From Candidatus Micrarchaeota archaeon (GTDB lineage Archaea; Micrarchaeota; Micrarchaeia; Anstonellales; Bilamarchaeaceae), in NCBI GenBank assembly GCA_040754495.1, contig JBFMCO010000022.1, positions 18,233 to 82,232 on the forward strand: a stretch of DNA of 64,000 nt. Direction: 5' to 3'. The notes below the pieces were generated by a model. It saw nothing but the letters and a program-made list of their open reading frames with translations, did not search any database and had not been told where the DNA came from. Made by a program: the position numbers and the translations under genes. Positions 34,701 through 59,558 of this stretch are shown in pieces (the stretch's first letter is position 1; every line of letters starts with the position of its first letter).

Positions 34701-36658
34701 CGCTCCTCGGCGGCCCTGCCGCCGCAGACGTCGCAGCGCCGGTAATAGCCGAGGCGGCGGCATTTTTCGCATCGCAGCCTGGCGAGCTCCAGGTTGATCG
34801 TCTTCTCGCCCTCGGCACCCCTGAGGGCACGGTGGACCTTGCTCAGGCTCCGGTTCTTGAACGAGCCGGTCGGGAAGAGGACGTGCGGCGAGCCGTCCAT
34901 CTTCCTTTCCTTTGCCTTCTCCGGCCTGCCCATGCGCGCTCCTATATAAGTAGGAGCCTTGGCCTTGATGCGTATCTGGGAGGCCGCGTTCACGATTTCG
35001 AGCGCGCCCTTTGCGGCATCGTATGCCGCTTCGAAGCGGGAGAGGTCTATGCGGCCATCCGAAAGCGCCCCCAGCGAAGAGAGGAGCGCGTACGCGTCGT
35101 CGCCGTCAAGGATGACATTCCCGTCGTGCACCCTGTGCTCCGCGAGGAGCTCCTCCAGGGCCCTTTTCGCAGGCGATGGCGGAAGGACGAGCGAGCGGAG
35201 CCTGCCATCGTGCATCTCCAGCTTCCCGCCCTTGAGCCAGTCCGCCAGGGATTTGAGCTGGTCCGGCGACAGGTCGTGCCAGTGGAATGTGTAGCGCGGA
35301 TGTAGAGGCACGCCATGCGTCCGCGAGAATGCAAAAAGCCCCGGCGCGTCCATGGCGGCAGGAGGCTGGACTCCCTTGGATTCGAGCTCGCGCTCCCACC
35401 ACTCTTCGCAGTAGCCGGATGGCATGAGGGGGTGGTTGGACTTGTGGAAATCGCCGTACGTGCAGAGCAGGTCGCCCAGGAAAAGGATTTCTTCCACCTC
35501 GTCCTTGATGCCGTACGACTCCTCCAGCGTCCGCACCTTCATCACGCGCCCGCTTTTGAGCTTCACGACCGGCGGCTCGAGCCCCTCGTGCGCCGCGACC
35601 ACGCAGCCCTTCCCGGGGCGCTCTATCTTCATGTGAGTCCCGTAGGCCAGGAAGTTGTCGAGCAGTATCATCGTGGCAGGATGGACGTCCTTGCCCATGA
35701 GGCAGGTGGTCTTGCTCCTGCCGTAGCGCAACCGGAACCCGCCCTTGGCCGAAGGGTGGCTGAAGACCGGCCTCCCCGCTACAAGCCCTTCCATGTAGGT
35801 CCAGTCCGGCTTCACCTCGACCTTGTCCGCCTTTTTCTTTATCTTGATGATTTTCTCGAGCCAGTCCCAGCCCAGCTTGAGCTTCTTGGCGTATTTGAGG
35901 AGCTTGGCGGCCTTCGCTGCCACGCCCTCGCACATGACGAGGGGCACGCCGCCGCGCACGCGGTCCGTCTCCACTCCCGGCACCCCGCGGTAGGTCGAGA
36001 CCTCGATTTCCTCGGTCGGGTCGCCGTCTATGCAGACCGGGCAGTTGGATGCTATCACGCGCACGTCGTCCTCCGGCGGCATGTACTGGAGGTGGGTTAC
36101 GCGCGTCTCGTATGTCGTTACCTCCTCGTAGTATCTTGCAATCTGGGAGTCCGTGGCGCGGTAGTCCCCCACGCTGCATACGCGGCGCGCGATGTCGGCA
36201 AGCACCAGGCTGAGGGCGGCCGCAGTGCCTCCTGCGCTCCGGATGGGGCCCGCATAATAGACCGCCACGTAGTCGCTCCCGTCCGGGTTGCGCTTTATCC
36301 TCACTTTCGCTATGCCCTCGGTCGGGGCGACCAGGACGCCCTCGGTGAGTATGCCGAGGCCCGTCCTCACCGCCTGTTCGATGAGAAGCTCCTTGGACGC
36401 CTTCATCAGCTCGCCGCCGGCGATTTTGCGTGCGATTTCGAACGCGATGTCCTCGCGGCCCATGCCACCTTTTTCCATGTCCCGGATGAGATCTGCCACT
36501 CCGGGGGGGCCGACGATACCCTCCACGCGGGCGGCGATGTCCTTGGCTATCTTGACTTCTATGTCGTCGCTCGGGTCATAGCCGAGCCTCCTTGCCTCTG
36601 AGGCGACGGCGTATGCCTTCTGCAGCCCCTCGCGGAGCGTCTCCACATACTCTCCCAT
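31778..36658 (-). CDS. polC: DNA polymerase II (PolD) large subunit DP2, interrupted by one intein
   Basis: 1,626 aa. Zn-finger run CEKCRRLGYYRRCDVCGG...CQKCG. Catalytic region GHPYFHTAKRRN|C...|CDGDEDCVMLLMDALINFSRRFLDEKRGGTMDAPLVL, which is contiguous in intein-free DP2. Confidence 0.9.
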   Translation of the reverse strand: MGEYVETLREGLQKAYAVASEARRLGYDPSDDIEVKIAKDIAARVEGIVGPPGVADLIRDMEKGGMGREDIAFEIARKIAGGELMKASKELLIEQAVRTGLGILTEGVLVAPTEGIAKVRIKRNPDGSDYVAVYYAGPIRSAGGTAAALSLVLADIARRVCSVGDYRATDSQIARYYEEVTTYETRVTHLQYMPPEDDVRVIASNCPVCIDGDPTEEIEVSTYRGVPGVETDRVRGGVPLVMCEGVAAKAAKLLKYAKKLKLGWDWLEKIIKIKKKADKVEVKPDWTYMEGLVAGRPVFSHPSAKGGFRLRYGRSKTTCLMGKDVHPATMILLDNFLAYGTHMKIERPGKGCVVAAHEGLEPPVVKLKSGRVMKVRTLEESYGIKDEVEEILFLGDLLCTYGDFHKSNHPLMPSGYCEEWWERELESKGVQPPAAMDAPGLFAFSRTHGVPLHPRYTFHWHDLSPDQLKSLADWLKGGKLEMHDGRLRSLVLPPSPAKRALEELLAEHRVHDGNVILDGDDAYALLSSLGALSDGRIDLSRFEAAYDAAKGALEIVNAASQIRIKAKAPTYIGARMGRPEKAKERKMDGSPHVLFPTGSFKNRSLSKVHRALRGAEGEKTINLELARLRCEKCRRLGYYRRCDVCGGRAAEERICQKCGRICEYEIHCEMKTLSYDRRPVDIMELFERVKDRVGSSPEDVKGVKGLSNTIRIPERLEKGFLRAKHDVYVFRDGTSRFDATDIPLTHFTPDEVGISLDRARALGYAVDYLGKPLESGSQTLALRHQDIVLSENGAAYFMRVADFIDDMLINLYGMKPFYNVKSKDDLIGHLAVGLSPHTSAGVLCRIVGFNKANVGYGHPYFHTAKRRNCFHPATEIIIFDEHEKKYIKRALGDVTEEMFAKYPDRVKRLDAYTEKVEVPGTLYSFGIDLQSHKTIRKKIKCFIRAKAPDKWIKLTTTTHREITVTPDHNILCLNKGALSAVQAKDMTEGSDLPVCIKFNPHTIDDSRVLNLAKALSPLKKEEKEAIILRSKDFFKKIFYNHRDLLLRILPLNKIERRTPSRWYGRVPLSHFEILVEEGVCNFEDLPMDAKIAMKRDNLGLPVRIPIDEDLMLILGYFVSEGYARRSPSCYQVSFRVCNKIMQNRLIAAIKSVFMTNPYLGENGTQITMCSRIIHLLFDKVLKTGSNAYTKRVPNLVFSLPDRLVKSFISAYFDGDGSVIATPPRMHFYSVSQNLLEDFGTLLLRFGIFCRYGKTKPRLPGKKVLERYKELGKTPRLLSQRFISLYGTDLYAFANICAPSVKHKAERMSELRRNGLSSDARFIKYQNKLFTVVPQSDYIFDKVRSIEKFTDGVPAYCLDVEGQSLEEKNVLLNNQVFTIRCDGDEDCVMLLMDALINFSRRFLDEKRGGTMDAPLVLSIEINPKEVDDEAHCIEIVSRYPLEFYEAAERFAPPGEVKLKTVKDVLGTDEQYELPITHPGGTLDVGNIRTAYVELQSIPDKIDIQFRLQGRLRPVDRRDAAERLILSHFIPDLYGNLRSFSRQTFRCVSCNTIFRRVPLAGKCARCGGNLLLTINKGGIEKYLEISRDICDRYDLPSYLKQRLVLVEREIKSIFEDDKVKQMGLSDFL
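32522..34054 (-). mobile_element. intein (511 aa) with LAGLIDADG homing-endonuclease domain in PolD DP2
   Basis: Starts CFHPATEIIIFD after KRRN. Block B ITVTPDHNIL. LAGLIDADG motifs LILGYFVSEGYA and FISAYFDGDGSV. Block F-like AYCLDVEG. Ends ...NVLLNNQVFTIR directly before CDGDED. Confidence 0.8.
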
Positions 36659-37971: not shown

Positions 37972-37996
37972 CCCTTTTACCAAGTATTTTTTCATT

Positions 37997-38165
37997 GGGC
38001 TCGTAGCTCAGCATCTTGAGGGAAAAGCGCCTAACAATGGGTTTTGGCCCAGCTTTTCCCAAAAGCTGGAAGCAGAGCACTCGCCTTGCAGTTTCCTCGA
38101 AACCGGAAACGGGAAACAGGAGACCGGAACGCGAGGGGCCGGGGGTGCGAGTCCCCCCGAGTCCA
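37997..38165 (+). tRNA. tRNA-Ala(UGC) with two introns (about 38012-38065 in the D-loop; 38091-38129 at 37/38)
   Basis: Acceptor GGGCTCG/CGAGTCC with G3:U70. D-arm GCTC-AG[intron]CTGGAAGCA-GAGC. Anticodon stem CTCGC/GCGAG, loop CUUGCA[intron]C. T-arm GGGGG-TGCGAGT-CCCCC. Discriminator A, then a T-run. Confidence 0.7.
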
Positions 38166-38235
38166 TTTTCTCATTTTGAACCATATGGAAACACTTAAAA
38201 AGCGTAATATACACAATACCCCTAGAGTGGTACTT

Positions 38236-38937
38236 ATGAAGCTTGTTCACGAGCAGGACCGCAAGAAGGACGAGGACAAGGGCATCCCGAAGGGGAAGGC
38301 GCCGCTTCTCGAGGAGATAGGCGGCACCGGGGGATTTTCCAGGAAGGGCTTTGTTCTGGCGGCAGCCGCTGCAGCCATTATCGCGGGCAAGTCCGGCTGC
38401 ACTTACGAAATCGGCGGCGTGCCCGTCCCTGAAGAGGAGGACGGGGGCAACGATGCCGGAGGGGCGGATGCCGATGTAGACGGAGGCGAGGTCACCGACG
38501 GCGGGCATGACGAGGACGCGGGCATGGACGGCGGTCCGGACGCGGATGTCGACGGCGGAGAGACGGATGGCGGCGTCACGGACGGCGGAGAGACCGACGG
38601 TGGCGTAGAAGACGGCGGGACCGATGGCGGCGCTGATGCCGGCGGCCCGCTCTGCGCGGGAGTATACAACGAAGTTGTCGTCAACGGACCTTTCGACAGG
38701 AACGTTGATACGGAAGTCGGCGGGTACTACTTCAGATACCTGTCCTACACGACGACCACGGTCACGATGGACATCCGCTGCGGCTCGGACAGCTCGTTGG
38801 TCGAGGCCGCCCATGTGTTCACTGTCGGCGTGGAGGGCACGATAAACGTCCCTGCCGACAGCAAGAGGATACGCGTCACCGTGAACAGCAAGAACACGTT
38901 CACCGCGAACTGCGATGTAACGGTGGAGAACCTGTAG
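38236..38937 (+). CDS. secreted/Cys-anchored protein, family member 1 (D/G/T-rich linker + conserved C-terminal domain)
   Basis: ATG at 38236. FVLAAAAAAIIAGKSGC, then an acidic DGG-rich linker. C-terminal GPLCAGVYNEVVVNGPFDRNVDTEVGGYYFRYLSYTTTTVTMDIRCG...VPADSKRIRVTVNSKNTFTANCDVTVENL. Confidence 0.7.
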   Translation: MKLVHEQDRKKDEDKGIPKGKAPLLEEIGGTGGFSRKGFVLAAAAAAIIAGKSGCTYEIGGVPVPEEEDGGNDAGGADADVDGGEVTDGGHDEDAGMDGGPDADVDGGETDGGVTDGGETDGGVEDGGTDGGADAGGPLCAGVYNEVVVNGPFDRNVDTEVGGYYFRYLSYTTTTVTMDIRCGSDSSLVEAAHVFTVGVEGTINVPADSKRIRVTVNSKNTFTANCDVTVENL

Positions 38938-38946
38938 GGTGATTTA

Positions 38947-39540
38947 TTGAGATTGCAGCCCCGGAATGAGGAACACAAGGAAGAAAAGAAGGAAGGATTC
39001 GCGAGAGAGCCCCTTCTCGAGAGGGCAGGGAAGAAGGCGGGAATAGCCCTCCTCGCAGCCGGACTTGCCGCAGGCTGCACGTATCAGAGCAGCAGCCTCC
39101 CCAGTGGTGATGGCGGAACTGACGCCCACCAGGATGCCGGCATGGACGGCGGCGCCGATGCAGGACCGGACCTCGATGCGGGACCGGATTCCGGTCTTCC
39201 GGATGCGGGAACGGATGCAGGTTTCGATGCCGGCACGGACGGCGGAGGGCCGCTGTGCGTAGGCGTCTTCAACGAGGCAGTGGTCAATGGGGCCTTCGAC
39301 AAGAACGTGCCGAGGGCCGTGGGCGGATACAGCTTCAATTACACGGCTTACACCACGAGCACAATCACCATGGACATCCGCTGCGGCTCGGACAGCTCGG
39401 GCGTAGCGCTCGGCCAGGTCTTCACTGTCGGAGTCGAGGCCGTAATAGACGTCCCTGCCGACAGCAAGAGGATACGCGTCACCGTGAACAGCAAGAACAC
39501 GTTCACCGCGAACTGCGATGTGACCGTGGAAAACCTCTAG
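38947..39540 (+). CDS. secreted/Cys-anchored protein, family member 2
   Basis: TTG start (uncertain). IALLAAGLAAGC, acidic linker. The same C-terminal domain ends in the identical VPADSKRIRVTVNSKNTFTANCDVTVENL. Confidence 0.65.
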   Translation: MRLQPRNEEHKEEKKEGFAREPLLERAGKKAGIALLAAGLAAGCTYQSSSLPSGDGGTDAHQDAGMDGGADAGPDLDAGPDSGLPDAGTDAGFDAGTDGGGPLCVGVFNEAVVNGAFDKNVPRAVGGYSFNYTAYTTSTITMDIRCGSDSSGVALGQVFTVGVEAVIDVPADSKRIRVTVNSKNTFTANCDVTVENL

Positions 39541-39650
39541 CCTACCCTTATCCCTTTATTCTTATCGCTCCATGCTTCTTATGCGGTCATGATGAGAAGA
39601 GGTATTCCTGAATGATGATGGGACGTCAGAGCTGAACCGCACAGATTTCC

Positions 39651-40175
39651 ATGGAGAAGAAGGCAGAGGGGATTGTAGAGATCGTTTCGGCAGCAGCCAT
39701 CGCCGGAGCTGTCCTTTATTTCTCGAGCGACATATCGGCCCTCGGCTCCTATGGGTATGCCGGGGCATTCCTCATAGCGATGCTCAGTTCGGCCACGATA
39801 ATATTCCCTGCGCCAGGCTGGGCTGCGGTGGTGGCCCTCAGCGGCACCCTGGACCCCCTTCTTCTTGGCATAGTGGTGGGGGCGGGCTCCGCCATCGGCG
39901 AGATTACGGGCTACCTTGCCGGCGACGGCGTGCGGGACATCATGAACAGCCGGCTGAAGGAGGCCAGGAAGTTCGAGGATTTCGTGAAAAAATACGGAAT
40001 CATGGCGATAGCCGTGCTAGCGTTCATACCCAACCCCCTATTCGACATAGCCGGGATTATAGCAGGCGGGCTGAGGATACCGTGGTGGAAGTACCTACTC
40101 TCATGCGCTGCAGGCCGGATAATCAGGTATGTGCTCCTTGCTTACATCGGGGCGTTCACGATAGGCCTGCTCTAG
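39651..40175 (+). CDS. DedA/YqaA-type (VTT domain) membrane protein
   Basis: YAGAFLIAMLSSATIIFPAPGWAAVV...GAGSAIGEITGYLAG...FIPNPLFDIAGIIAG matches the VTT/YqaA pattern. Confidence 0.6.
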   Translation: MEKKAEGIVEIVSAAAIAGAVLYFSSDISALGSYGYAGAFLIAMLSSATIIFPAPGWAAVVALSGTLDPLLLGIVVGAGSAIGEITGYLAGDGVRDIMNSRLKEARKFEDFVKKYGIMAIAVLAFIPNPLFDIAGIIAGGLRIPWWKYLLSCAAGRIIRYVLLAYIGAFTIGLL

Positions 40176-40295
40176 CCTGATGGGAACGTATATAAAGAGG
40201 GAAAAACATAATTATCTGCTTAAAAAAGGGACAAAGTTCGCAAGAAATCTGTTTCTGCGGCCCTTTTTGATACAAAATTACAGGGAGGTGGGGAG

Positions 40296-40751
40296 ATGAA
40301 GATGGGGGCAATAGACCTGGATATCCTGCGGGAGCTGCGCGAGAACTCAGACAGGCCGGTGCGGGAGCTTGCCAAGAAGATGGGATTGCACCCGAACACC
40401 CTGCTGCAGCACATAAGGAAGATGGAGAGCAGCGGCATCATCGTGAAGTATACGGCAGAGATAGACTACACCAAGCTCGGCTACGACCTGCAGGCTCTTG
40501 TGATGATAAAGGTCGGCAAGGAGGTCCGGAGCGACTGGAAGGTTCTCGATGAGCTGCGCGCGTTCAAGGACGTCTCGGCGCTCTATGCGATAACCGGGGG
40601 CTACGACCTTTGCGCCATCGTGAAGACGAAGAACAGGGAAACGCTCGCAAACCTGCTCTCCGAGATAAACAAGAGGCCGTACGTGGTCGAGACGAACACG
40701 ACGCTCATGCTCCACGCTTTCAAGCACGCGTACGAGTTCAACCCGCTCTGA
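40296..40751 (+). CDS. Lrp/AsnC family transcriptional regulator
   Basis: DLDILRELRENSDRPVRELAKKMGLHPNTLLQHIRKMESSGIIVKYTAEIDYTKLGY: HTH plus RAM-domain pattern. 151 aa. Confidence 0.8.
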   Translation: MKMGAIDLDILRELRENSDRPVRELAKKMGLHPNTLLQHIRKMESSGIIVKYTAEIDYTKLGYDLQALVMIKVGKEVRSDWKVLDELRAFKDVSALYAITGGYDLCAIVKTKNRETLANLLSEINKRPYVVETNTTLMLHAFKHAYEFNPL

Positions 40752-40754
40752 GGC

Positions 40755-41690
40755 TCAGTCCTTGTGGAATACCATGCCATACATGTCATGGTATTCGTCT
40801 ATCCTCTTCCGCATCAGCGTGGCAGGCACATAGTGGAATCCGGTGAGCTGGAAGATGGAGCTGATTTCAGGAATCTGGAGGACGGTGACGGCGATGCGTA
40901 TAAGCCTGGCCAGCTTCTGGACTTCATTGTCATCCGGATGGAGGTCCGTCCTGACGACAAGGGGCGACTCCTCGATGGAAATGAGCCTGCCTCCAGGGGG
41001 GAGCGTGTTGAAAAGCATGCTGGCGACGTTGCATTTCTCATCCGAGCCCCTGATCCAGTGCATGACGTAAGACAGGATGGCGGTCCTTACTTCCCCGCCG
41101 TCCTCCACCTCGCGGAGGTCCTTTGCGTCCCTGCACTCGAAGCGGACACGCAAGAGCTCCAGCTCCCGCACCATCAGCTGCATTTTCCGCCCGTCGTCGG
41201 AGTCAACGATGTGGAGCGATGCGGGGTGGATGCCCGGGGATACGAAAGGCATGGACTCGATGAGCCTCTGCATCGCATTCCTCACGTTGGCCCGTGCCAG
41301 GCCGAGCATCACTTCCGACATGTCCAGCAGTATGAACTTGAGGGGGAGCTTCGGCACCTGGAGCAGGCTGTCCTGTGTGGAGAGGACTTCTGCGGACATG
41401 CTCACCATGAGGTTAGCGGAAAGGACGCCGGTGCCGCATCCCAGTTCCGCAATCGGGCCGGCCGAATGCCCTTCGGCGACATAGTTCCTGAGAATCTCGA
41501 GCGCAATCGGGTGGTGGCTTTCGCGCATCCATTCATCGTAGCGCGGCGCGAACCTTTCCGTAGCCCGGAGCACGGTTGCCAGGGTCGGCGGTTTCATGAG
41601 ACGGGCGTCCGGCGAGCGGCTTATGATAAGCGGCATCGGCCTTCCTGAAGCCATAGAATTGCCGCCTGCGTCCCCTCCCATTATACCCAC
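40755..41690 (-). CDS. class I SAM-dependent methyltransferase (start uncertain)
   Basis: Motif I IAELGCGTGVLSANL. The later LPPGGRLISIE is typical of post-II/III motifs. Several in-frame Met codons near the N-terminus. Confidence 0.6.
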   Translation of the reverse strand: MGIMGGDAGGNSMASGRPMPLIISRSPDARLMKPPTLATVLRATERFAPRYDEWMRESHHPIALEILRNYVAEGHSAGPIAELGCGTGVLSANLMVSMSAEVLSTQDSLLQVPKLPLKFILLDMSEVMLGLARANVRNAMQRLIESMPFVSPGIHPASLHIVDSDDGRKMQLMVRELELLRVRFECRDAKDLREVEDGGEVRTAILSYVMHWIRGSDEKCNVASMLFNTLPPGGRLISIEESPLVVRTDLHPDDNEVQKLARLIRIAVTVLQIPEISSIFQLTGFHYVPATLMRKRIDEYHDMYGMVFHKD

Positions 41691-41730
41691 AGGGATATAT
41701 GTTCTACCATTTATTTAAAAAGGCTTCCGC

Positions 41731-42678
41731 TCAGGAGGGTTTCTTGAAGCAGAGGCAGCGCATCTCGCCCCAGTAATCCGGAGGCAGGCCCGGGCCGCGG
41801 AGCACCTCGGCCAGGCGGACCACTTCCACCCGCGTCTCGGCCGCGGCCTGCATGTCGGTCTCGGCCACCCGGGCTATCCACTTGTCCCTCACCCAGCCGG
41901 AAACATCCTCGCTCATGTCGAGCGGGCGGCTTATGAATGCCAGGAGCTTGGCGCCTTCGGAGCCGACGACGCCGTAGGGAAGGGGCAGCCATGGGTAGAC
42001 GTCCATAATTATGAACCGCCCGCCGTCCCTCAGGAGGTCGAACGCATTCGTCATCACGGCCCCCCTGCTCGCCAGCGTCTGGAAAGAGCCCCACCAGAGG
42101 ACTATGTCGAACATGGCCGGCTTCACCACCGGGCTTTCCCGGACGAGGCCCTCCATGGAGAGGTCGATTGACGCCATCGTGACGGCCTTCCCGTCCGGCC
42201 TGATGAACTCCGCCAGGTTCGACCTCGCTATTAGGTTCAGCTCGGGCGACACCTCGTTGGCGAATACGCGCAGGCCCGAGTTAGCGGTGTGGAGGAGATA
42301 GCGCGACACCATCCCGGTGCCGCAGGTGGCATCAAGGATGAGTTTCGCGTGGTTGATGTCAGGCACGAGGGACCGGAGCTTCATCCAGTTGACCGCGATA
42401 GCGGTATACTGGCCCGTCAAATCCATGAAGACGTCGAGGGAGCTCCCGCCGCCCTCGTGCGGGCGGGCCAGATACCCGCCCGTGGTAACCCGGACGGCCC
42501 CGAAGCCTCTTTCGCGCAGGACTTCATCTTCGTGCTGGCTTCCGTTTCCGAAAAGCGCGGGTGATTCTTCCACAAGCGGGGCAGCGCCGCCGCCTGCGCG
42601 GCGCAGGCCGGAGATGGGGACGCTCCGCTCGCCCTGGACTACGAACACGCGCTGGGGCTTCCTGAAACGTTCCGGCAT
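41731..42678 (-). CDS. class I SAM-dependent methyltransferase
   Basis: ATG at 42678 (ORF track GTG at 42687). Motif I ILDATCGTGMVSRYL, then LRDGGRFIIMDV. Confidence 0.6.
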   Translation of the reverse strand: MPERFRKPQRVFVVQGERSVPISGLRRAGGGAAPLVEESPALFGNGSQHEDEVLRERGFGAVRVTTGGYLARPHEGGGSSLDVFMDLTGQYTAIAVNWMKLRSLVPDINHAKLILDATCGTGMVSRYLLHTANSGLRVFANEVSPELNLIARSNLAEFIRPDGKAVTMASIDLSMEGLVRESPVVKPAMFDIVLWWGSFQTLASRGAVMTNAFDLLRDGGRFIIMDVYPWLPLPYGVVGSEGAKLLAFISRPLDMSEDVSGWVRDKWIARVAETDMQAAAETRVEVVRLAEVLRGPGLPPDYWGEMRCLCFKKPS

Positions 42679-42816
42679 ATCACCCACTCGGGACTTTATT
42701 AGACTGGAAAGGTATTTAAGTTATTATATATGTCGCGTCTTGGATAATAACGCGTTGCACCCGGAAAACAGAACTCGGGCCCGGGGCACTGAACCGGAAA
42801 CCGGCTGCCGGGGGCT

Positions 42817-42853
42817 GGATGCAGGAAAAAAATAGCGGGGGGTAGATTTGAAC
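42817..42853. repeat. 37-bp direct repeat, copy A (partial copy of initiator-tRNA 3' end plus its downstream flank)
   Basis: GGATGCAGGAAAAAAATAGCGGGGGGTAGATTTGAAC is identical to 42960-42996. No complete tRNA can be folded around copy A. Confidence 0.8.
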
Positions 42854-42959
42854 CCCCAGCCTTTTTATAATCGGAATCCTGGCCCCGGAGAAAAAGGCTA
42901 GGGTTAACCCAAAAACCAGTTTCTCGGAACCCTGAACCCGAAACGGGAAACCGGAAACA

Positions 42960-42996
42960 GGATGCAGGAAAAAAATAGCGGGGGGTAGATTTGAAC
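42960..42996. repeat. 37-bp direct repeat, copy B (overlaps the intact initiator tRNA 3' end)
   Basis: Identical to 42817-42853. Covers tRNA positions from the T-loop to the discriminator (42976-42996) plus 16 nt downstream of the tRNA. Confidence 0.8.
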
Positions 42997-43080
42997 TACC
43001 GGTCCCTGGGTTATGAGCCCAGTGGGAACTCCAAGCTTCCCATAGGGCAAATTCTAGATGTTAGAATTTGTTACCCCGCT
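42976..43080 (-). tRNA. initiator-type tRNA-Met(CAU) with one intron (about 43042-43071) between position 9 and the D-stem
   Basis: Minus strand: AGCGGGG-TA-[ACAAATTCTAACATCTAGAATTTGCCCTAT]-GGGA-AGCTTGGAGT-TCCC-A-CTGGG-CTCATAA-CCCAG-GGACC-GGTAG-TTCAAAT-CTACC-CCCCGCT-A. A1:U72 and three G:C pairs next to the anticodon loop are archaeal initiator hallmarks. Confidence 0.75.
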
Positions 43081-43221
43081 TTGCTTGGAGCACTTTAACC
43101 CAGATTGTCCTAACAGAAGTCAGAACGAGAATAATTAGCGGGCTAATGCTTTATAATGGTGATTGAAATTCAGGCGCTAGATGAAGTAAAAGAGAAAGAA
43201 GGAGAAAAGGGAGGAAGAAAC

Positions 43222-43791
43222 TCACTTCCTCTTTTTCGCCGGCGCGACGGGCCGCGGCGGAGGCTCCTCCTCTTCCACCGGCTCCTCTTCGGACATCCCG
43301 GCCTCTTCCTCCGCAGGCTCTTCCTCCTGCGGCTCCTCTTCCTCAGGCTCGGGCCTCCTCGCTGCGGGCCTCGGGGACGGGGCTGCCATCCTCTGCGGCG
43401 GCGGGGCCTTCTCGGTCTCCATCTTCTTCACGATTTTGTGGACCATCTCGCGCTCCATCTGCTCGCTCTTGCGCGAGTCGTCCTCGAGCTTGCCCTTGTG
43501 GTAGTAGAAGCCGGCCATGAACATGAGGCCCGAGATTACCAGCGGGACCAGCAGGGAACCGAGGTAGAGCGACGGCAGTATGACTGTCGCGAACTCGTTC
43601 TTCAGCTTCGCGAACTCGGATGGAGGAGTGACGCCGCACTGCTGCAGCTTGGTGAAATCGTTCGTGGTGACGAAATCGACTACTGCTCCGATTATTCCGC
43701 TTGCATACGATATTATCACATAGGCCGCGCCCACGATGACCAGGAGGCCCAGCACTACAAACAGATAGCTTACAACCTTGAATTTACTCAT
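43222..43791 (-). CDS. membrane protein with acidic/Pro-rich C-terminal tail, hypothetical
   Basis: ORF track. Hydrophobic segments (VSYLFVVLGLLVIVGAAYVI, LLVPLVISGLMFMAGFYY), then EEEEPQEEEPAEEE and a basic end. Confidence 0.55.
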   Translation of the reverse strand: MSKFKVVSYLFVVLGLLVIVGAAYVIISYASGIIGAVVDFVTTNDFTKLQQCGVTPPSEFAKLKNEFATVILPSLYLGSLLVPLVISGLMFMAGFYYHKGKLEDDSRKSEQMEREMVHKIVKKMETEKAPPPQRMAAPSPRPAARRPEPEEEEPQEEEPAEEEAGMSEEEPVEEEEPPPRPVAPAKKRK

Positions 43792-43812
43792 ATTTACACC
43801 CCCTCGATTATA

Positions 43813-44586
43813 TTAGGATAAAGTAAAATAAATCCTCCTGTTGTCCTTCCCCTTGTTGTCGAGACGGAGTATGGCTATCCTGCCTACCTCCGCAAGGCTC
43901 CGCACGTGAGTCCCGCCGTCCGCCTGGACGTCTATGCCGGGAATCTCGACGATGCGAAGCTCGCTTATGGATGGCGGCAAAGCGCCTGCAAGCTTCACGA
44001 CGCCAGGTATCTTCATCGCTTCCGCGCGCGGAAGAGTATAGACCTTGAGCGCTGCGCCGCTTGAGAGCGCGTCGTTCGCCTTCCGGACGATTTCCTCGAA
44101 TTGCGGGCGGTCGAACGAAGCGAGGCTGAAGTCGAAGCGCGCCTTGTCCTCCTCGAGCTGATTTCCCGTAATCAGCACGCCGAGCTCCTTGTACATGGCA
44201 GCTCCGAGCACGTGCGCTGCCGTGTGCATGCGCATGAGCTTGTAGCGCCGCTCCCAGTCTATCACGCAGCGGACATGGTCGCCGGCCCCGAGTTTCCAGT
44301 TCCCGGTTTCGTCTTTGGGTTCAGCGTCCAGAAGGTGGACGATTTGGCCGTCTTTCTTGAATACGTCCACGACACTGAACACGGAACCGGGAGCGGGCGG
44401 CCCTGCGCCGGAGACCGGCTGCCCGCTGCCGGAAACCAGCGCGATGCTGCCCCGGTCGGCAGGCTGGCCGCCGCCCCTCGGATAGAACACGGTCCTGTCG
44501 AGGACGACCTCCTTGCCGCTCACCGACAGGACCTGCGCGGCGCACTCGCGCATGTAGCTGTCATCGAGATAAAGGGCCTGGCTCAT
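43813..44586 (-). CDS. alaX: alanyl-tRNA editing protein AlaX-like
   Basis: LYLDDSYMRECAAQV...VVLDRTVFYPRGGGQPADRG, MRMHTAAHVL (HxxxH), ADGGTHV. Length matches AlaX-M type. Confidence 0.75.
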   Translation of the reverse strand: MSQALYLDDSYMRECAAQVLSVSGKEVVLDRTVFYPRGGGQPADRGSIALVSGSGQPVSGAGPPAPGSVFSVVDVFKKDGQIVHLLDAEPKDETGNWKLGAGDHVRCVIDWERRYKLMRMHTAAHVLGAAMYKELGVLITGNQLEEDKARFDFSLASFDRPQFEEIVRKANDALSSGAALKVYTLPRAEAMKIPGVVKLAGALPPSISELRIVEIPGIDVQADGGTHVRSLAEVGRIAILRLDNKGKDNRRIYFTLS

Positions 44587-44640
44587 AAAGCTTTTAAATG
44601 CAGGAAAACATTAATAGGTTGGGATTAGGAGCTGATTGTC

Positions 44641-45150
44641 ATGGCAGGAAGGGACACGAGGCCGAAAGAGGAGATTCTGGAGACGCACGCCCAGACGGGC
44701 GAGGCGCAGAGGCAGCAGCAGGAGGCTGCGCAGAGGCAGGTCGGGGGGATAGACCTCTCGAGGCTGGTCGCCGCAAAGCAGCAGGTCCGCGGAGCTGTGA
44801 CCGAGCAGTCTGCGCACGCGTACCAGGTTGCCTCCACGACAAGAAGGGTGTTCATGGAGGAGGTCGAGCGCAGCAGGGACATCACCCTGAGGGGCAACGT
44901 CCGCGATTCCGAGATGATGAGGATAGCCGCCAACCCGGAAGCCTTCGAGAACTGCAAGGTCCAATACGGATACAACCAGAGGCAGAGGATATACAGCGTC
45001 GCAACCGAGTTCGACGGCAGGCCGAGAATCCTCACGGTGCGCGTCGGGGAGAACTTCATGGAGATGTCGCTCGCAGACAGGCAGGGCACCGTCCTCGAGA
45101 CCATGAGGCAGGAAGACGGAAGGGGCATAACATACAGCAGGGCAGGCTGA
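44641..45150 (+). CDS. hypothetical protein (169 aa)
   Basis: ORF track. ATG start, stop 2 nt before the rpiA start. Q/E/R-rich N-terminus. No motif recognised. Confidence 0.45.
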   Translation: MAGRDTRPKEEILETHAQTGEAQRQQQEAAQRQVGGIDLSRLVAAKQQVRGAVTEQSAHAYQVASTTRRVFMEEVERSRDITLRGNVRDSEMMRIAANPEAFENCKVQYGYNQRQRIYSVATEFDGRPRILTVRVGENFMEMSLADRQGTVLETMRQEDGRGITYSRAG

Positions 45151-45152
45151 TT

Positions 45153-45806
45153 ATGAGCCAGGCGAAAATTAACGCCGCAAGAGCAGCGCTCGGATACGTG
45201 AAGGACGGCATGTGCATAGGCCTTGGCAGCGGCACGACAGTCCGGGAGTTCATAAGGCTGCTCGGGGAAAAGGTCCGCGGCGGCCTGAAGGTGAGCTGCG
45301 TGACGACATCGTTCGATTCGCGCATGCTGGCAATCGAGTGCGGCATATTCGTGACCGAGACGGACGCCATCGACGAGATAGACCTCACGGTGGACGGGGC
45401 CGACAAGGTCACGAAGACCGCCCTCCTCAAGGGAGGCGGGGGGGCGCTGACAAGGGAGAAGATAATCGGCTACAACGCGAAAAGATTCATAATCATTGCA
45501 GACGAGGGCAAGGTCCAGGAGGGGACGCTGGAAGGCGAGGTAAATCTCGAGGTGCTCCCTTTCGCGGCCCCGCTTGTCATGCGAGCGCTCAAGAGATACA
45601 ACCCCAGGATACGGATGGCGAAAGCCAAGCTGGGGCCGGTGATAAGCGACAACGGGAGCTTCATAATAGACTGCGAGATGAAGCTCGACGACCCGAGGAA
45701 GACGGAGCAGTGGCTAAAGAGCATCCCGGGCATAGTCGAGAACGGAATCTTCACGAGATTCGACGTCATAATAGTCGGCAGCGAGAAGGGCCACAGGGTC
45801 CTCTGA
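45153..45806 (+). CDS. rpiA: ribose-5-phosphate isomerase A
   Basis: MSQAKINAARAALGYVKDGMCIGLGSGTTV...DLTVDGADKV...LLKGGGGALTREKI. This is the C-terminal part of ORF 44598..45806, whose upstream part is a frame artefact. Confidence 0.85.
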   Translation: MSQAKINAARAALGYVKDGMCIGLGSGTTVREFIRLLGEKVRGGLKVSCVTTSFDSRMLAIECGIFVTETDAIDEIDLTVDGADKVTKTALLKGGGGALTREKIIGYNAKRFIIIADEGKVQEGTLEGEVNLEVLPFAAPLVMRALKRYNPRIRMAKAKLGPVISDNGSFIIDCEMKLDDPRKTEQWLKSIPGIVENGIFTRFDVIIVGSEKGHRVL

Positions 45807-45844
45807 TTAACGGCTTATAAAAATCCAGAAGAATGGCTTTCCGC

Positions 45845-45943
45845 TGTTGGCACGGGGGAACCGTCCGCAGACGGTGGGTCCTGTGCCCAAAGGGCGTCCT
45901 GGGGTCAAGAATCAGACTAGCCCGGCATGGCGCCTAAGGTTTT
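45845..45943 (+). ncRNA. candidate small structured RNA of unknown class (weak)
   Basis: TTATAAAAA (45815-45823) lies about 25 nt upstream. Nested helices GGCACGGG...CCTGTGCC enclosing CCGTC-CGCA-GACGG, then GGCG...CGCC enclosing CTGGG...CCCGG. Ends at a TTTT run. No ORF. Confidence 0.25.
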
Positions 45944-46045
45944 CTACAGAGCCGATTTTACGCTATTCGTTTTGGGATTTCGGAATTTATGACAAAGAAA
46001 TATACTTTTAAACACATCTGCACAGAAGAGAGGTAGGTGTTTTTC

Positions 46046-46747
46046 ATGACTATTGAGAGGATGAAATCCCAGAGGGGGGCTAACGAGGCGAGGAATGCGA
46101 GGGTCGCGAAGGTTGCGGCAACGGTTCTGCTCATAGAGGGGCTTGCGTCCATATGCGCTGCCCAGGGCTGCAGCGACCCGTTCACGTCTTCGGGAATAAA
46201 GACCGAAACCGATTCCGGCACAGGCGGGCATGGAGGCACTTCCGGCTCCGGGGGCAGCAGCGGCATGGCCGGCTCGGGCGGGCTCGCGGGAACAGGAGGC
46301 GAGGCCCAGGGCGGCAGCGGCGGCGTTGGCGGAACCGGCGGAGCCGCAGGCATGGGGGGAAGCGGCGGCTTTGCCGGAGCGGGAGGCCAGGGGGGCGTAG
46401 CAGGGCAGGGAGGAGCGGGCGGCATGGCTGGCGCAGGAGGCGCCGGCGGAGCGGGCCCTCTGTGTGCCGGGGTTTATAACGAGTTCGTGGACCACGGGAC
46501 GTTCCCGAAGAACACGCCAACCGAAGCCGGAGGCTACTACCTCAACTACCTGTCCTACACTGCCACCACGATAACCATGAATATCCTGTGCGCCTCGGAC
46601 AATTCAGCCGTCGCGAGCGGCGAGGTTTTCACGGAGAACGTCGAGAAGACCGTCAACGTCCCGGCCGATGGCAAGAAAATCAGGGTGACGCTGCATAACA
46701 TGAACACTTTCCAGGCCGTTTGCAGCGTGACCGTAGAGCCCCTCTGA
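46046..46747 (+). CDS. secreted/Cys-anchored protein, family member 3 (Gly-rich linker)
   Basis: ATG at 46046 after GAGAGGTAGGTG. LLIEGLASICAAQGC, a long GGxGG linker, and C-terminal GPLCAGVYNEFVDHGTFPKNTPTEAGGYYLNYLSYTATTITMNILC...VPADGKKIRVTLHNMNTFQAVCSVTVEPL. Confidence 0.7.
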   Translation: MTIERMKSQRGANEARNARVAKVAATVLLIEGLASICAAQGCSDPFTSSGIKTETDSGTGGHGGTSGSGGSSGMAGSGGLAGTGGEAQGGSGGVGGTGGAAGMGGSGGFAGAGGQGGVAGQGGAGGMAGAGGAGGAGPLCAGVYNEFVDHGTFPKNTPTEAGGYYLNYLSYTATTITMNILCASDNSAVASGEVFTENVEKTVNVPADGKKIRVTLHNMNTFQAVCSVTVEPL

Positions 46748-46866
46748 AAGCCGCTCCGGCGGCTTTCCTTTTTCAGCTTTTTTTCATCCGTTGTTTTGGC
46801 TAATGTTTAAAAATGCTAGCCATTAAATCACAAACAGACAAAAATCTTAACAAAAGGTGGGAGAGG

Positions 46867-47850
46867 ATGGGCAGACTACACAGCAAGCAGGAAGCGGACG
46901 CAGCGCCGCACGGGGGAAGGACTGTTTCTGAGAAAAGAAGGGCTCTTTCGAAATGGCTGATAGGGGCCTCGGTGGCCGCTTCCGCCGCTCTTGCAGCCGC
47001 ATCGTGCAGCGAGAGGAACGAGAATCTGTACATCCCGATTCCGCCGAGCGGAAACACGACGGATGGCGGAACCACGAACGATGGCGGGCCGGAAACAGAC
47101 GGGGGGCAGACGAGCGACGGCGGCACTACCGACGGCGGATGCGTTTCGCCTGCGCCGGTCTGCAACTCGCAGTACGTCTACGGCCTGCTCAATGTAGGCG
47201 AGATGCTGCTGATAGGGGATTACCGGGTGAGGCTGGCCGACACGAACGAAGCCGGCGGGGAGCAGAGGGCAGTTGTCGAGGTCCTCGACTCCTGCAACAG
47301 CGTGATAACCAGCCAGCCGGTCAACGAGAACGACACGGTCGTCTTCCAGGTCATGGGGACAGATATCGAAATCGAGGTCGCGGTTACGCATGTAACCGTT
47401 TCGGCGCCGAAATCCGCACGCATCACTGCCGAGATGACCTGCACTGACGGCGGGGTCACGGATGGAGGAGTGACGGACGGAGGCAATACCGACGGCGGCC
47501 CGGCTGACGCAGGCCCTGACGTTGATGGCGGCGCGGCCGATGGCGGAAGCGACGGCGGCCCATCCTGCACCGGCGTGTACAACGAGTCTGTCGATAACGG
47601 AGAGTTCGACAGGAACGTGGACGTCGAGGTCGGCGGCTACCATTTCAGGTACCTTTCCTACACGACCACCAGCGTCACCATTGACATCAGGTGCGGCGCG
47701 AGCAGCGCGGACGTGGCCCTCGGCGAGACGTGCGGGACCGGCGTCGAGAGGGTGATAGACGTCCCCGCAGACGGCAAGAGGATACGCGTCACCCTTGAGA
47801 ACAAGAACACGTTCCGCGCCATAATGGACGTAACGGTCGAGGACCTCTGA
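46867..47850 (+). CDS. secreted/Cys-anchored protein, family member 4 (extra middle domain)
   Basis: ATG at 46867 after GGTGGGAGAGG (alternative ATG 46813). ASVAASAALAAASC. Middle domain GDYRVRLADTNEAGGEQRAVVEVLDSCN...FQVMGTDIEIEV. The shared C-terminal domain ends VTVEDL. Confidence 0.7.
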   Translation: MGRLHSKQEADAAPHGGRTVSEKRRALSKWLIGASVAASAALAAASCSERNENLYIPIPPSGNTTDGGTTNDGGPETDGGQTSDGGTTDGGCVSPAPVCNSQYVYGLLNVGEMLLIGDYRVRLADTNEAGGEQRAVVEVLDSCNSVITSQPVNENDTVVFQVMGTDIEIEVAVTHVTVSAPKSARITAEMTCTDGGVTDGGVTDGGNTDGGPADAGPDVDGGAADGGSDGGPSCTGVYNESVDNGEFDRNVDVEVGGYHFRYLSYTTTSVTIDIRCGASSADVALGETCGTGVERVIDVPADGKRIRVTLENKNTFRAIMDVTVEDL

Positions 47851-47855
47851 GGGGG

Positions 47856-49133
47856 ATGCACATGGACAATCTCAAATTGCGCAGGGGAAGCGTCGATGAG
47901 AAAGAGGGGAGGGAGGACGCGAAGCCGAAGGAGAAATGGGGCAAGTGGCTTCTTGGAAGCGGAGCGGTCACATCCGTGGCTGCGGCTGCAATCATCGCAA
48001 TCTCGTGCGGCGACTCAAACACGGACCATTACATACCGATCCCGCCTAACGGCAATGTCGACGGCGGGACTACGGAGGACGGAGGCCCGGTCACGGACGG
48101 CGGGGACGAGGACGGCGGGGTTACCGATGGAGGGGATGGGGGGACCTGCACGCCGCCAACGCCATCTTGCGCCACCCAGACGGTCAACGTTCTCATGAAC
48201 GTAGGCGAGCAGCTTGTCGTCGGCGATTACAGGATAAGGCTGGCAGACACGAACGAAGCCGACGGGGAGCAGAGGGCCGTTATCGAGGTCCTGGATTCCT
48301 GCAACCAGCTCATCCGCTCCGAGCCTATTAACGAGGACGGCAGCAAGGTCTTCCAGGTGATGGGCACCGATATAGAGATAGAAGTCAGCGTCACGAACGT
48401 AACGATAACCGGCGCGAAGTCTGCCAGGGTAAGCGCGGAGATGAGATGCACAACCGGCACCGACGGAGGCCCGGTCACGGATGGCGGCCCGGAGACGGAT
48501 GGAGGGCCGACCGAGACTGACGGAGGGCCTGCCGATGCAGGCCCGGACGTCGATGGCGGAGAGACCGATGGCGGGCCTGTTACGGACGGCGGGACCGAAG
48601 AGGACGGTGGCGCCACGGATGGAGGCCCCACTGACGGCGGGCCGGACGTGGACGGCGGGCCTGTCGAGGAGGACGGCGGAGTTAGCGACGGCGGCCCCAC
48701 GGATGCCGGCCCTGACGTCGATGGCGGCGCGGCCGAAGACGGCGGCGTAACCGATGCCGGGCCCGATGTGGACGGCGGGGCTGACGCCGACGCTGGCGTG
48801 ACCGACGGAGGCGCGGATGCCGACGGCGGCACTGTAATCGTCTGCAGCGGCCTGTACAACGAGCACGTTGACAACGGCGAGTTCCCGAGGAACGAGGACG
48901 TGGAGCTGGGCGGATACTACTTCAGGTATGTCTCCTACACGCCAAACACGGCCACGGTCGAAATATACTGCTCGGCCGACAGCTCTCTTGTCAGCGGCGG
49001 GATGACGCTCACGCAGGGGCACGAGGAGACCCTCGAGCTTCCTACAGACGGGAAGCGCATCCGGTTCTTCCTCGAGAACAAGAATACGTTCAGGGCCATA
49101 ATCGACGTAAACGTCGAGGACCTCCCACCCTGA
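47856..49133 (+). CDS. secreted/Cys-anchored protein, family member 5 (extra middle domain, longest D/G/T/P array)
   Basis: SVAAAAIIAISC. Middle domain GDYRIRLADTNEADGEQRAVIEVLDSCN...FQVMGTDIEIEV. About 125 aa of xDGGP-type repeats. C-terminal domain ...ELGGYYFRYVSYTPNTATVEIYC...GKRIRFFLENKNTFRAIIDVNVEDL. Confidence 0.7.
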   Translation: MHMDNLKLRRGSVDEKEGREDAKPKEKWGKWLLGSGAVTSVAAAAIIAISCGDSNTDHYIPIPPNGNVDGGTTEDGGPVTDGGDEDGGVTDGGDGGTCTPPTPSCATQTVNVLMNVGEQLVVGDYRIRLADTNEADGEQRAVIEVLDSCNQLIRSEPINEDGSKVFQVMGTDIEIEVSVTNVTITGAKSARVSAEMRCTTGTDGGPVTDGGPETDGGPTETDGGPADAGPDVDGGETDGGPVTDGGTEEDGGATDGGPTDGGPDVDGGPVEEDGGVSDGGPTDAGPDVDGGAAEDGGVTDAGPDVDGGADADAGVTDGGADADGGTVIVCSGLYNEHVDNGEFPRNEDVELGGYYFRYVSYTPNTATVEIYCSADSSLVSGGMTLTQGHEETLELPTDGKRIRFFLENKNTFRAIIDVNVEDLPP

Positions 49134-59096: not shown

Positions 59097-59558
59097 ATGA
59101 GGACGCCCGTCCTTGCGCTTATCGCGCTCCTTGCCGTCGGTTGCATCGAGCCGCAGGTCAGCCAGGAGCTGCCTCCTGACCTGTATATAGCCTATTCGTA
59201 CGGAGCGTGCCACGCCGAGTGGGGCCGCACGGTGATAGAGATAGACGCCGAGGGCCGCGGCACCTACGAGAGCGGCATAGGGAACGGGGATGCCGGAGAT
59301 GGGCCGGGCGTCGTGAGCGAAACGAGGCTGTTCAGGCTGGACCGGACCGAGCTTCTCTCGCTCCTCAACGGGATAGAGAGGTCCGGATTCTTCTACCTCG
59401 AGGACAGGTACGCGAACCCGCTCATCGTGGACGGCGACTGCAACTATATCTCCGTGACGCGAAACGGAACGGAGAAGATGGTTTCCATCTCGAACACGAA
59501 GCCGCCGGAAGCGTATTCGAAGGCGGCCGCGCTGATATCCGAAGCCGCTTCGGGCTAA
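59097..59558 (+). CDS. lipoprotein-like hypothetical protein
   Basis: MRTPVLALIALLAVGC signal/lipobox-like N-terminus. 153 aa. Confidence 0.5.
   Translation: MRTPVLALIALLAVGCIEPQVSQELPPDLYIAYSYGACHAEWGRTVIEIDAEGRGTYESGIGNGDAGDGPGVVSETRLFRLDRTELLSLLNGIERSGFFYLEDRYANPLIVDGDCNYISVTRNGTEKMVSISNTKPPEAYSKAAALISEAASG

Follow-up and report, generated by a model that had tools for sequence, protein, structure and literature searches.

The life of DPANN archaea, Micrarchaeota among them, is one of attachment to other archaea. Little is known of how they recognise their hosts and keep hold of them, and most DPANN surface proteins are listed simply as 'hypothetical'. Among the described systems, archaeal lipoproteins offer a comparison for the genes considered here. 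The enzymes of the archaeal pathway are AliA (arCOG02177) and AliB (arCOG02178). In the Haloferax volcanii proteins HVO_1176 and HVO_1705, which are lipidated by AliA/AliB, a Cys follows the small residue that closes the N-terminal signal, and a low-complexity linker leads from this Cys to a folded extracytoplasmic domain. Lipobox-containing proteins are predicted to be common in DPANN and SignalP6-predicted lipoproteins are reported to be prevalent in this group, in which the AliA family is reported with gaps (PMC12462473). Five genes in the window (the whole 64,000-nucleotide stretch of DNA analysed here), lying in two clusters, encode proteins with the same order of parts. Unlike the Haloferax proteins, they have a far longer n-region with conserved motifs, a Cys near residue 47 and mostly Ala at −3; their folded domain is neither a substrate-binding protein nor any described family, and their lipidation is predicted. 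We consider it somewhat probable that they are lineage-specific surface proteins of a Micrarchaeota (DPANN) archaeon, of the lipoprotein type and built from an anchor, a stalk and a head.

The five open reading frames listed by the first-pass annotation are all present on the + strand (Table 1). For three of the five (members 1, 2 and 3), NCBI gene calls of equal length are byte-identical. An SD-like GAGGTAGGTG lies 5′ of the member 3 ATG and an SD-like GGTGGGAGAGG immediately 5′ of the member 4 ATG; these motifs and the identical NCBI calls support the start codons. A TATA-like TAATATACA is located about 30 nt 5′ of the member 1 ATG. Only 9 bp separate member 1 from member 2, and 5 bp separate member 4 from member 5. 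The hairpin that follows member 3 is terminator-like in sequence and, if it acts as such, would split member 3 from a member 4-5 unit. The possibility that these are spurious high-GC reading frames was rejected, since it is the + strand proteins that are conserved in other genomes, and the overlapping minus-strand frames are high-GC shadow ORFs.

Table 1. Positions in the window of the five family genes, their parts and a hairpin.
Feature	Coordinates	Strand	Description	Basis
Member 1	38236..38937	+	ATG start, 233 aa	ORF and translation; identical to MEW6035417.1
Member 1 parts			n-region with 'APLLEE' motif, h-region, Cys55 (codon 38398-38400), acidic DGG stalk, C-terminal head 38644-38934	
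Member 2	38947..39540	+	TTG start, 197 aa	ORF; identical to MEW6035418.1 (P0088)
Member 2 parts			'EPLLERAGKKAG' motif, lipobox-like GLAAG/C, Cys44 (codon 39076-39078), acidic stalk, head 39247-39537	
Member 3	46046..46747	+	ATG start, 233 aa	ORF; identical to MEW6035427.1
Member 3 parts			h-region ...ICAAQG/C, Cys42 (codon 46169-46171), Gly-rich stalk, head 46454-46744	
Hairpin GCCGC-TCCG-GCGGC	46750..46785	+	GC-rich, then T-runs; directly 3′ of member 3 stop codon	Read from sequence
Member 4	46867..47850	+	ATG start, 327 aa	ORF and domain alignments
Member 4 parts, N-terminus			'RRALSKWLIG', h-region, AAAS/C, Cys47 (codon 47005-47007), then 'NLYIPIPP'	
Member 4 parts, rest			Stalk 1, middle beta-sandwich domain 47134-47448, stalk 2, head 47557-47847	
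Member 5	47856..49133	+	ATG start, 425 aa	ORF and domain alignments
Member 5 parts, N-terminus			'KWGKWLLG', h-region, IAIS/C, Cys51 (codon 48006-48008), then 'DHYIPIPP'	
Member 5 parts, rest			Stalk 1, middle domain 48141-48455, 128-aa acidic stalk 2, head 48837-49130	

Each protein carries one of the Cys-terminated hydrophobic stretches that had been read at its N-terminus (AGKSGC, LAAGC, AAQGC, AAASC and IAISC), and the anchor Cys is an invariant column of the five-way alignment. The earlier proposal that the five are paralogues, probably exported and anchored through a Cys, is borne out, export being predicted from sequence. An N-terminal h-region followed by Cys was found in 70 of 91 family sequences, most of the others being fragments that start in the stalk or head. 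Among the 70, position −1 is G, S or A in 57 and position +2 is G, T or S in 57, and a median of 16 uncharged residues (range 5-24, often 12-14) precedes the Cys, too few to make a stable TM helix. All five window members have K/R residues ahead of the h-region, giving the expected order of a basic n-region and an uncharged h-region (~7-22 residues). The core of the PROSITE lipobox pattern PS51257, used in the form {DERK}(6)-[LIVMFWSTAG](2)-[LIVMFYSTAGCQ]-[AGS]-C, matches four of the five window members, member 1 alone failing to match with its K at −3; in its strict form it matches about half of the family representatives. We propose that the N-terminus is a Sec-type lipoprotein signal, in which a basic n-region and a short uncharged stretch would lead to a lipobox-like [A/L][A/S/G][G/S/A]-Cys, and that the Cys would be lipid-modified by an AliA/AliB-type pathway, anchoring the protein to the membrane.

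As judged from the sequence, the putative export signal is atypical, with a long charged n-region that puts its Cys at residue 42-55 (family median 47); the PROSITE lipoprotein rule, which places the Cys at residues 15-35, fits none of the five members. The n-regions are 25-45 residues long and carry subfamily-specific conserved motifs directly before the h-region (PLxER..KKA or FSKWLL), and at position −3 of the family Ala is commoner than Leu. One could envision, in place of lipoproteins, signal-anchored (type II) membrane proteins, with the n-region in the cytoplasm, the h-region retained in the membrane and the Cys at the outer interface having another role; this Cys might form an intermolecular disulfide, say, or be lipidated while the signal stays uncleaved. 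The length of the n-regions and their motifs adjoining the h-region are in keeping with this alternative, as are the well-backed start codons and the position of the Cys outside the classical lipoprotein rule. However, an uncharged stretch of this length is short for a membrane span, and small residues as strictly conserved as those at −1 and +2 typically mark a processing site. Moreover, other proteins of the window use canonical short lipoprotein signals: an unrelated ORF at 59097 has a textbook signal, MRTPVLALIALLAVG/C, as does an FGE-sulfatase-domain protein at 25287 (...LAGSLMGG/C). We think that a type II arrangement is unlikely. A Cys beyond residue 35, Ala or Lys at −3 and long, motif-bearing n-regions are nevertheless points against a lipoprotein, and the conserved n-region motifs would also suit the cytoplasmic tail of an uncleaved signal anchor.

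Other routes of export were rejected on motif tests. A Tat signal (S/T-R-R-x-F-L-K before the h-region) is absent; RR occurs only in member 4 (KRRALSKWL), and members 1, 2, 3 and 5 have no twin arginine beside the h-region. A class III (type IV pilin-like) signal, [KRDE][GA][ALIFQMVED][ILMVTAS]3, is not present in members 2-5, and only member 1 (RKGFVLA) fits by eye; such signals have a short n-region, and the n-regions here run to 25-40 residues. The archaeosortase/PGF-CTERM arrangement of PGF motif, TM helix and basic tail is likewise absent, all five proteins ending right after the beta-sandwich (VENL, VEPL, VEDL, VEDLPP).

According to the lipoprotein model, an intrinsically disordered stalk would keep the folded part off the membrane, and its length would change through gain or loss of repeat units. 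The stalk segments, of 36-128 residues each, are Asp/Gly/Thr/Pro-rich or Gly-rich; that of member 3 is Gly-rich (GGxGG/AG) and not acidic, with G44 A13 S11 among 94 linker residues. In member 5 the DNA of stalk 2 contains tandem repeats of 18 to 51 nt. The length differences between near-identical strain variants are mainly stalk indels: the variant P0002 differs from member 4 mainly by a 37-aa insertion in stalk 2, and P0006 differs from member 5 by several stalk indels. Calcium-binding repeats of the RTX type were considered for the stalk and rejected on the wrong period and the lack of a Pfam match.

The C-terminal head comprises 97 aa with 32 invariant columns in the five-member alignment, which agrees with the consensus given by the first-pass annotation. 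Pairwise tblastn between members gave E values of 1e-24 to 1e-50 and 46-77% identity, and further copies were not detected in the 64-kb window, where the next best tblastn matches had E > 0.2. The AF2 model of the head is all-beta with a pLDDT of 90.3. C4 and C46 of the head, each retained by no fewer than 90% of 49 diverse copies, probably form a disulfide. The earlier statement that neither shared domain is recognisable holds against described sequence families (Pfam, NCBIfam and PDB sequences). Neither the five members nor the 49 diverse domain copies gave a Pfam or NCBIfam family match to the head, and the family profile run against PDB sequences and Pfam returned noise only (a quorum-sensing activator at E 0.03 and cytochrome f at E 0.7). 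Based on the alignment and the predicted structure, the head is a previously undescribed small beta-sandwich that defines a real lineage-specific family. No ligand-binding motif was identified in it. We suggest that the distal end of these proteins would consist of one to three compact 8-stranded beta-sandwich domains, each with a conserved Cys pair, and that the heads would do the work of the protein, most likely by binding a ligand of the envelope or of a host surface. Candidate ligands are the S-layer, glycans and the host cell of the episymbiont.

The DUF1608 domain of the Methanosarcina acetivorans S-layer protein MA0829 (PDB 3u2h) aligns structurally with the head at 11-14% identity and may have a similar fold. 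DUF1608 (Pfam PF07752/TIGR01567) is a tandem two-subdomain unit of a large lattice-forming protein, whereas the head is a single 97-aa unit on a stalk. One hypothesis is that the family members are envelope struts or S-layer tethers, in which the lipid-anchored stalk spans the space below the S-layer and fixes it or sets its spacing, and the head docks on a Micrarchaeota S-layer protein that itself has a DUF1608-type domain. Any likeness is, however, at the level of the fold only, with identity no higher than 15%; Foldseek finds nothing, there is no sequence similarity or Pfam/NCBIfam match between DUF1608 and the family, and 3u2h was not recovered when the family profile was run against PDB sequences. 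In addition, five to seven diverging paralogues with strain-variable stalks would be unexpected of a structural tether, and an S-layer gene is absent from the neighbourhood. We regard such a role as quite improbable.

The head can also be compared with domain I of class II fusion proteins and fusexins (dengue E domain I, 3uc0; archaeal Fsx1, 7p4l). Only the domain-I-like unit is found here. Domain II with its fusion loops, domain III, the stem, the C-terminal TM segment and sequence similarity are all missing, and a C-terminal hydrophobic segment is absent from the five proteins, which end at the head (...VE[DN]L). This is not a fusogen architecture. An extension of both comparisons is that the head represents an ancient free-standing beta-sandwich unit of S-layer DUF1608 and of class II fusogen-fusexin domain I. 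The stalked lipoproteins would then be host-docking or membrane-contact molecules, perhaps opening cytoplasmic bridges, and the n-region motifs would provide a sorting route to the contact site; we hold this to be highly improbable. The periplasmic domain of the CcmF/CcsBA cytochrome c haem lyases (PDB 6zmq, 7s9z), at 15% identity, is in CcmF an insertion in a polytopic membrane enzyme, whereas the family has neither the haem motifs (WWD, conserved His) nor a cytochrome-maturation gene context.

Members 4 and 5 do share a middle domain, with 69% identity over ~105 aa. It had been described as a second domain, and it exists as such but does not stand as an independent novelty: its predicted fold (member 5 model, pLDDT 76.6) is the same as that of the head, and on these models it is probably a divergent duplicate of the C-terminal head.

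Relatives of the family had to be sought with HMMER, since a word-indexed protein search started from the five-domain alignment came back empty, missing even the window's own proteins. The exhaustive HMMER scan yielded 86 relatives. No relatives emerged when GTDB genomes and JGI metagenome contigs were scanned for patterns of the five-sequence alignment, and exact look-ups yielded no contig for member 1, member 4 or P0009. The genes hold conserved syntenic positions as orthologues in related genomes, where the heads are 38-56% identical to their syntenic orthologues as compared with 60-90% for the neighbouring genes; the heads diverge faster than the genes around them.

The first-pass annotation saw in the family a variable cell-surface repertoire. 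Read as a phase- or antigen-variable one, it would be analogous to the size-variable Vlp lipoproteins of Mycoplasma and would serve to evade viruses or host responses. Vlps likewise form a tandem gene family in which a lipobox anchor precedes repeats whose extent differs from strain to strain, but they have no conserved folded C-terminal head. Variability as such stands: there are multiple tandem paralogues, the repetitive stalks differ in length among near-identical strains, and the heads evolve fast. Members 1 and 2 also have a 66-nt tract of 100% DNA identity inside the head domain, a sequence feature that suggests gene conversion. Weak matches of the member 5 N-terminus to the NCBIfam models for VlpC, VlpA and the Mplas variable lipoprotein domain (E 5e-5 to 4e-3) point the same way. 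However, these matches cover only the signal peptide and stalk and fall far below the family cut-offs (NF045730, 23.3 bits against 160; NF045729, 17.3 against 175; NF033817, 17.3 against 22), and the other four members have none. A switching repertoire is harder to reconcile with the loci, as orthologous syntenic positions are kept across genomes in which the neighbours are only 60-90% identical. Because of these conserved syntenic orthologues, and because no cassette, inversion or switching machinery was noticed in passing beside the clusters (invertible promoters, homopolymer switches, silent cassettes and recombinase genes included), the loci do not look like a shuffling antigenic-variation system. 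We judge a Vlp-like repertoire to be very unlikely.

This multi-copy family, conserved in position across related genomes and probably surface-exposed, offers concrete candidates for a role in the envelope or in contact with the host, with a compact, confidently predicted head that has no Pfam model. It would also lend itself well to testing, outside the haloarchaea, the archaeal lipoprotein pathway that was recently discovered, and an extended signal peptide with conserved n-region motifs is unusual. Should the proteins be only anchored structural components, their value would lie mainly in a new domain-family entry and a marker for a Micrarchaeota clade.

Bacterial contamination was rejected: the contig carries DUF359, archaeal ribosomal-type neighbours and a PolD large subunit that contains an intein, the NCBI labels are of Micrarchaeota, and archaea are also the source of the syntenic loci. 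The 6.5-kb stretch separating the clusters, earlier labelled 'housekeeping', deserves the label roughly, its annotated contents being a VTT/DedA-type membrane protein, an Lrp/AsnC regulator, two methyltransferases, a TM protein, an AlaX-type editing protein, a small hypothetical protein and RpiA. A functional link to the adjoining VTT/DedA gene was considered and rejected, the adjacency being part of a larger conserved synteny; L003 has the VTT gene but lacks cluster 1.

All five open reading frames predicted by the first-pass annotation were found on the + strand at the positions it gave (see the table), and each encodes the hydrophobic stretch terminated by a Cys that it described, the Cys forming an invariant column of the five-way alignment. 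Alignment also bore out a common C-terminal domain (the head), which comprises the final 97 residues and has 32 invariant positions. Identity between members ranges from 46 to 77% (E-values of 1e-24 to 1e-50 in pairwise tblastn), and no sixth copy was found in the window with either the five-sequence profile or a broader 49-sequence profile. Members 1, 2 and 3 are the same in sequence and length as NCBI entries MEW6035417.1, MEW6035418.1 and MEW6035427.1, labelled 'MAG: hypothetical protein AB1529_02285/_02290/_02340 [Candidatus Micrarchaeota archaeon]' and located on an 88.9-kb contig. Minus-strand ORFs overlapping the members were dismissed as shadows of the 61% GC sequence. The window is archaeal, its archaeal gene content including the large subunit of PolD (DNA polymerase II) with an intein and DUF359; an AlaX-type editing protein, RpiA and an Lrp/AsnC regulator are also encoded.

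Coordinates of the family members and of other features in the window
Feature	Position	Strand	Description
Member 1	38236-38937	+	
Member 2	38947-39540	+	
Member 3	46046-46747	+	
Member 4	46867-47850	+	with middle domain
Member 5	47856-49133	+	with middle domain
Giant single ORF	1946-22471	+	6841 aa; one third of the window; strong GC and AT skew
Lipoprotein ORF	25287-26207	+	canonical signal ...YAVLAGSLMGG followed by C; FGE-sulfatase-domain protein; unrelated to the family
PolD large subunit	31778-36658	-	interrupted by intein
Intron-containing tRNA gene	37996-38166	+	just upstream of member 1
Partial tRNA match	42984-43041	-	30 bits, slightly over the Rfam gathering score; model positions 10-63
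Conserved hypothetical	44641-45150	+	one 169-aa ORF, between AlaX and RpiA
Lipoprotein ORF	59097-59558	+	canonical signal MRTPVLALIALLAVG followed by C; weak DUF6438 match; unrelated to the family
497-aa ORF	61750-63243	-	signal-like N-terminus; Pro/Val-rich repeats PVRPVQPVQPVAPV; Gly/aromatic-rich C-terminal half

Neither the head nor the additional domain of members 4 and 5 (the middle domain, approximately 105 aa with 69% identity between the two) had been recognised, and indeed neither matched Pfam or NCBIfam above noise. Scanning 49 diverse copies one by one against these databases, and the family profile against all PDB sequences, gave nothing beyond noise. AlphaFold2 predicted the head as an all-beta domain of eight strands (mean pLDDT 90.3), in which each of C4, C46, the VGGY turn and V94 is retained by 90% or more of the copies; a DGK turn belongs to the family consensus. 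C4 and C46 probably form a disulfide, which would suit an extracytoplasmic location. The predicted middle domain (pLDDT 76.6) also has eight strands, with the order and lengths seen in the head; profile-profile comparison aligned the two over 67 columns (E 4.9e-5, probability 68%) with VGGY placed on VGDY, and the head HMM matched the middle domain weakly and in register. Thus, the middle domain is real and lacks a database family, as claimed, but it shares the predicted fold of the head and is not an independent second novelty; the shared strand order and the two alignments indicate that it most likely arose from the head by an old duplication and then diverged. That both domains represent one fold, and probably one family, is newly recognised here. 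Heads also occur in tandem in the relatives P0005, P0038 and P0051.

An N-terminal hydrophobic stretch followed by Cys was seen in 70 of the 91 sequences examined, the remainder being mostly contig-truncated fragments that start in the stalk (the low-complexity linker after the Cys) or in the head. The residue at −1 is G, S or A in 57 of these 70, positions −2 to −4 are chiefly A, L, S or G, and +2 is G, T or S, again in 57. In the window, the core pattern of PROSITE PS51257 fits four of the five, and member 1, the exception, carries Lys at −3. The family agrees only in part with a classical lipoprotein signal, since the Cys (median position 47) is too far from the N-terminus, a consequence of a long, highly charged n-region. 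Subfamily-specific motifs lie in this region immediately ahead of the hydrophobic h-region: 'PL(L/T/S)E(R/G)..KKA' in the member 1/2 type (17/70) and '(R)F(S/G)KWLL' in the member 4/5 type (24/70), the latter also having 'NY(I/V)PIPP' a few residues past the Cys. That the n-regions are genuinely long is clear because Shine-Dalgarno-like motifs precede the ATG of members 3 and 4, the motifs are kept in orthologues, and NCBI start calls agree. This extended, motif-bearing signal peptide is a new feature. One could envision that the n-region remains uncleaved as part of a signal anchor and functions in the cytoplasm. The uncharged stretch, with a median of 16 residues, has the length of a signal peptide and is short for a membrane span, and we regard the signal-anchor topology as unlikely.

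The best-supported interpretation is that the members are lipid-anchored, stalked surface proteins, in which the conserved Cys would receive the lipid anchor and the stalk would carry the head at the cell surface. It is favored because the Cys context is kept across very divergent n- and h-regions, and because two unrelated ORFs of the window bear textbook lipoprotein signals, internal evidence that the organism makes lipoproteins. It is also favored by a published account (PMC12462473) according to which lipoproteins predicted by SignalP6 are prevalent in DPANN, where AliA, a family of lipidation enzymes, is reported to occur as well. In kind, the members fall into a known category, archaeal lipobox surface proteins. 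Membership in DUF1608, as judged by sequence match, in class II fusogens or in Mycoplasma Vlps was rejected on testing, as was assignment to Tat substrates, pilin-like signals or PGF-CTERM substrates. The main structural alternative, in which the family tethers the S-layer, draws encouragement from a report of a DUF1608-like domain in the Micrarchaeota S-layer protein, for which no anchor is established (bioRxiv 10.1101/2021.04.28.441871). A Foldseek search of the PDB returned nothing below E 0.1, and the likeness to S-layer and fusogen domains is at best at the level of fold (identity 15% or less); we consider the tether role improbable.

Stalks are mostly rich in Asp, Gly, Thr and Pro, with units such as DGG and DAGPDVDGG, and those of member 3 and its nearest relatives are Gly/Ala-rich. 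The stalk DNA contains tandem repeats of 15 to 51 nt, and length differences between near-identical strain variants fall in the stalks, as in a member 4 variant with a 37-aa insertion in stalk 2 (between the middle domain and head) and a member 5 variant with several stalk indels. The window and two related Micrarchaeota contigs, L001 and L003, share the gene order PolD, CMD, [members], VTT, TM protein, AlaX, two small ORFs, RpiA, [members], DUF359, PRC, DUF2085. Both cluster positions are filled in L001, with four members; L003 has a two-headed and a short member after RpiA, and in a fourth genome (L004) three tandem members occupy a different locus. The conserved hypothetical between AlaX and RpiA is a single ORF in the window, and in its place the relatives (L001 7904-8408; L003 6708-7227) have two adjoining genes, of 92 and 73 aa.

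The family evolves faster than the surrounding genes, since neighboring proteins of the window and L001 are 60-90% identical whereas the heads are 38-56% identical; the N-terminal and middle parts are approximately 52% identical. Within the heads of members 1 and 2, otherwise 70-80% identical in DNA, a 66-nt tract (38849-38914 and 39452-39517) is 100% identical, which suggests local gene conversion between these adjacent paralogues. No switching machinery was noticed next to the member clusters. Because the lineage is one of obligate episymbionts, and the family has several paralogues, stalks that vary and heads that evolve fast, we favor a role of the head in binding or adhesion, either at the envelope or where the host is contacted. 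The family is a good candidate for studies of DPANN surface biology, with no functional surprise so far.

A word-indexed protein search returned zero family matches. When 1.84 billion cluster representatives were searched exhaustively with HMMER, 86 proteins matched at E ≤ 1e-3, 34 of them at E ≤ 1e-10; wherever a match has a named source, that source is a Micrarchaeota MAG and the protein is labelled 'hypothetical protein'. Weak, repetitive matches (P0075, P0077 and P0082) are likely false positives. The source MAG holds two further members, adjacent on another contig (AB1529_06710 and _06715; P0019 and P0009), which brings its total to seven copies or more, distributed over three clusters. 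P0030, a 675-aa protein from a Logan assembly, has the head at its C-terminus, and the rest of the protein includes a lipoprotein signal that is short and of bacterial type, a region rich in Cys and, by eye, apparent DUF1566-like repeats; the domain may have been transferred between DPANN archaea and a bacterium. P0043 and P0049 each contain the domain twice and lack a signal, the gene neighbors of P0043 being archaeal, and P0074 lacks both a signal and the second Cys of the matched copy. We conclude that this is a new, undescribed domain family, nearly restricted to Micrarchaeota.

The tRNA gene upstream of member 1, with 5′ end GGGCTCGTAGCTCAG, T-arm GGGGG-TGCGAGT-CCCCC and 3′ acceptor CGAGTCC-A with a G3:U70 pair, was not called by default ARAGORN or Rfam; allowing long introns, ARAGORN reported a tRNA with a 91-nt intron. 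Inspected by eye, it could alternatively be a tRNA-Ala(UGC) with two introns. The partial tRNA match, located between a methyltransferase gene and the gene for the TM protein, could represent a further tRNA that is split or contains an intron. In the L003 homologue of PolD, a LAGLIDADG_3 domain lies between the PolC_DP2 catalytic parts. The 497-aa ORF has no Pfam match, nor does either half of the giant ORF; giant proteins of this kind have been reported in other DPANN archaea.
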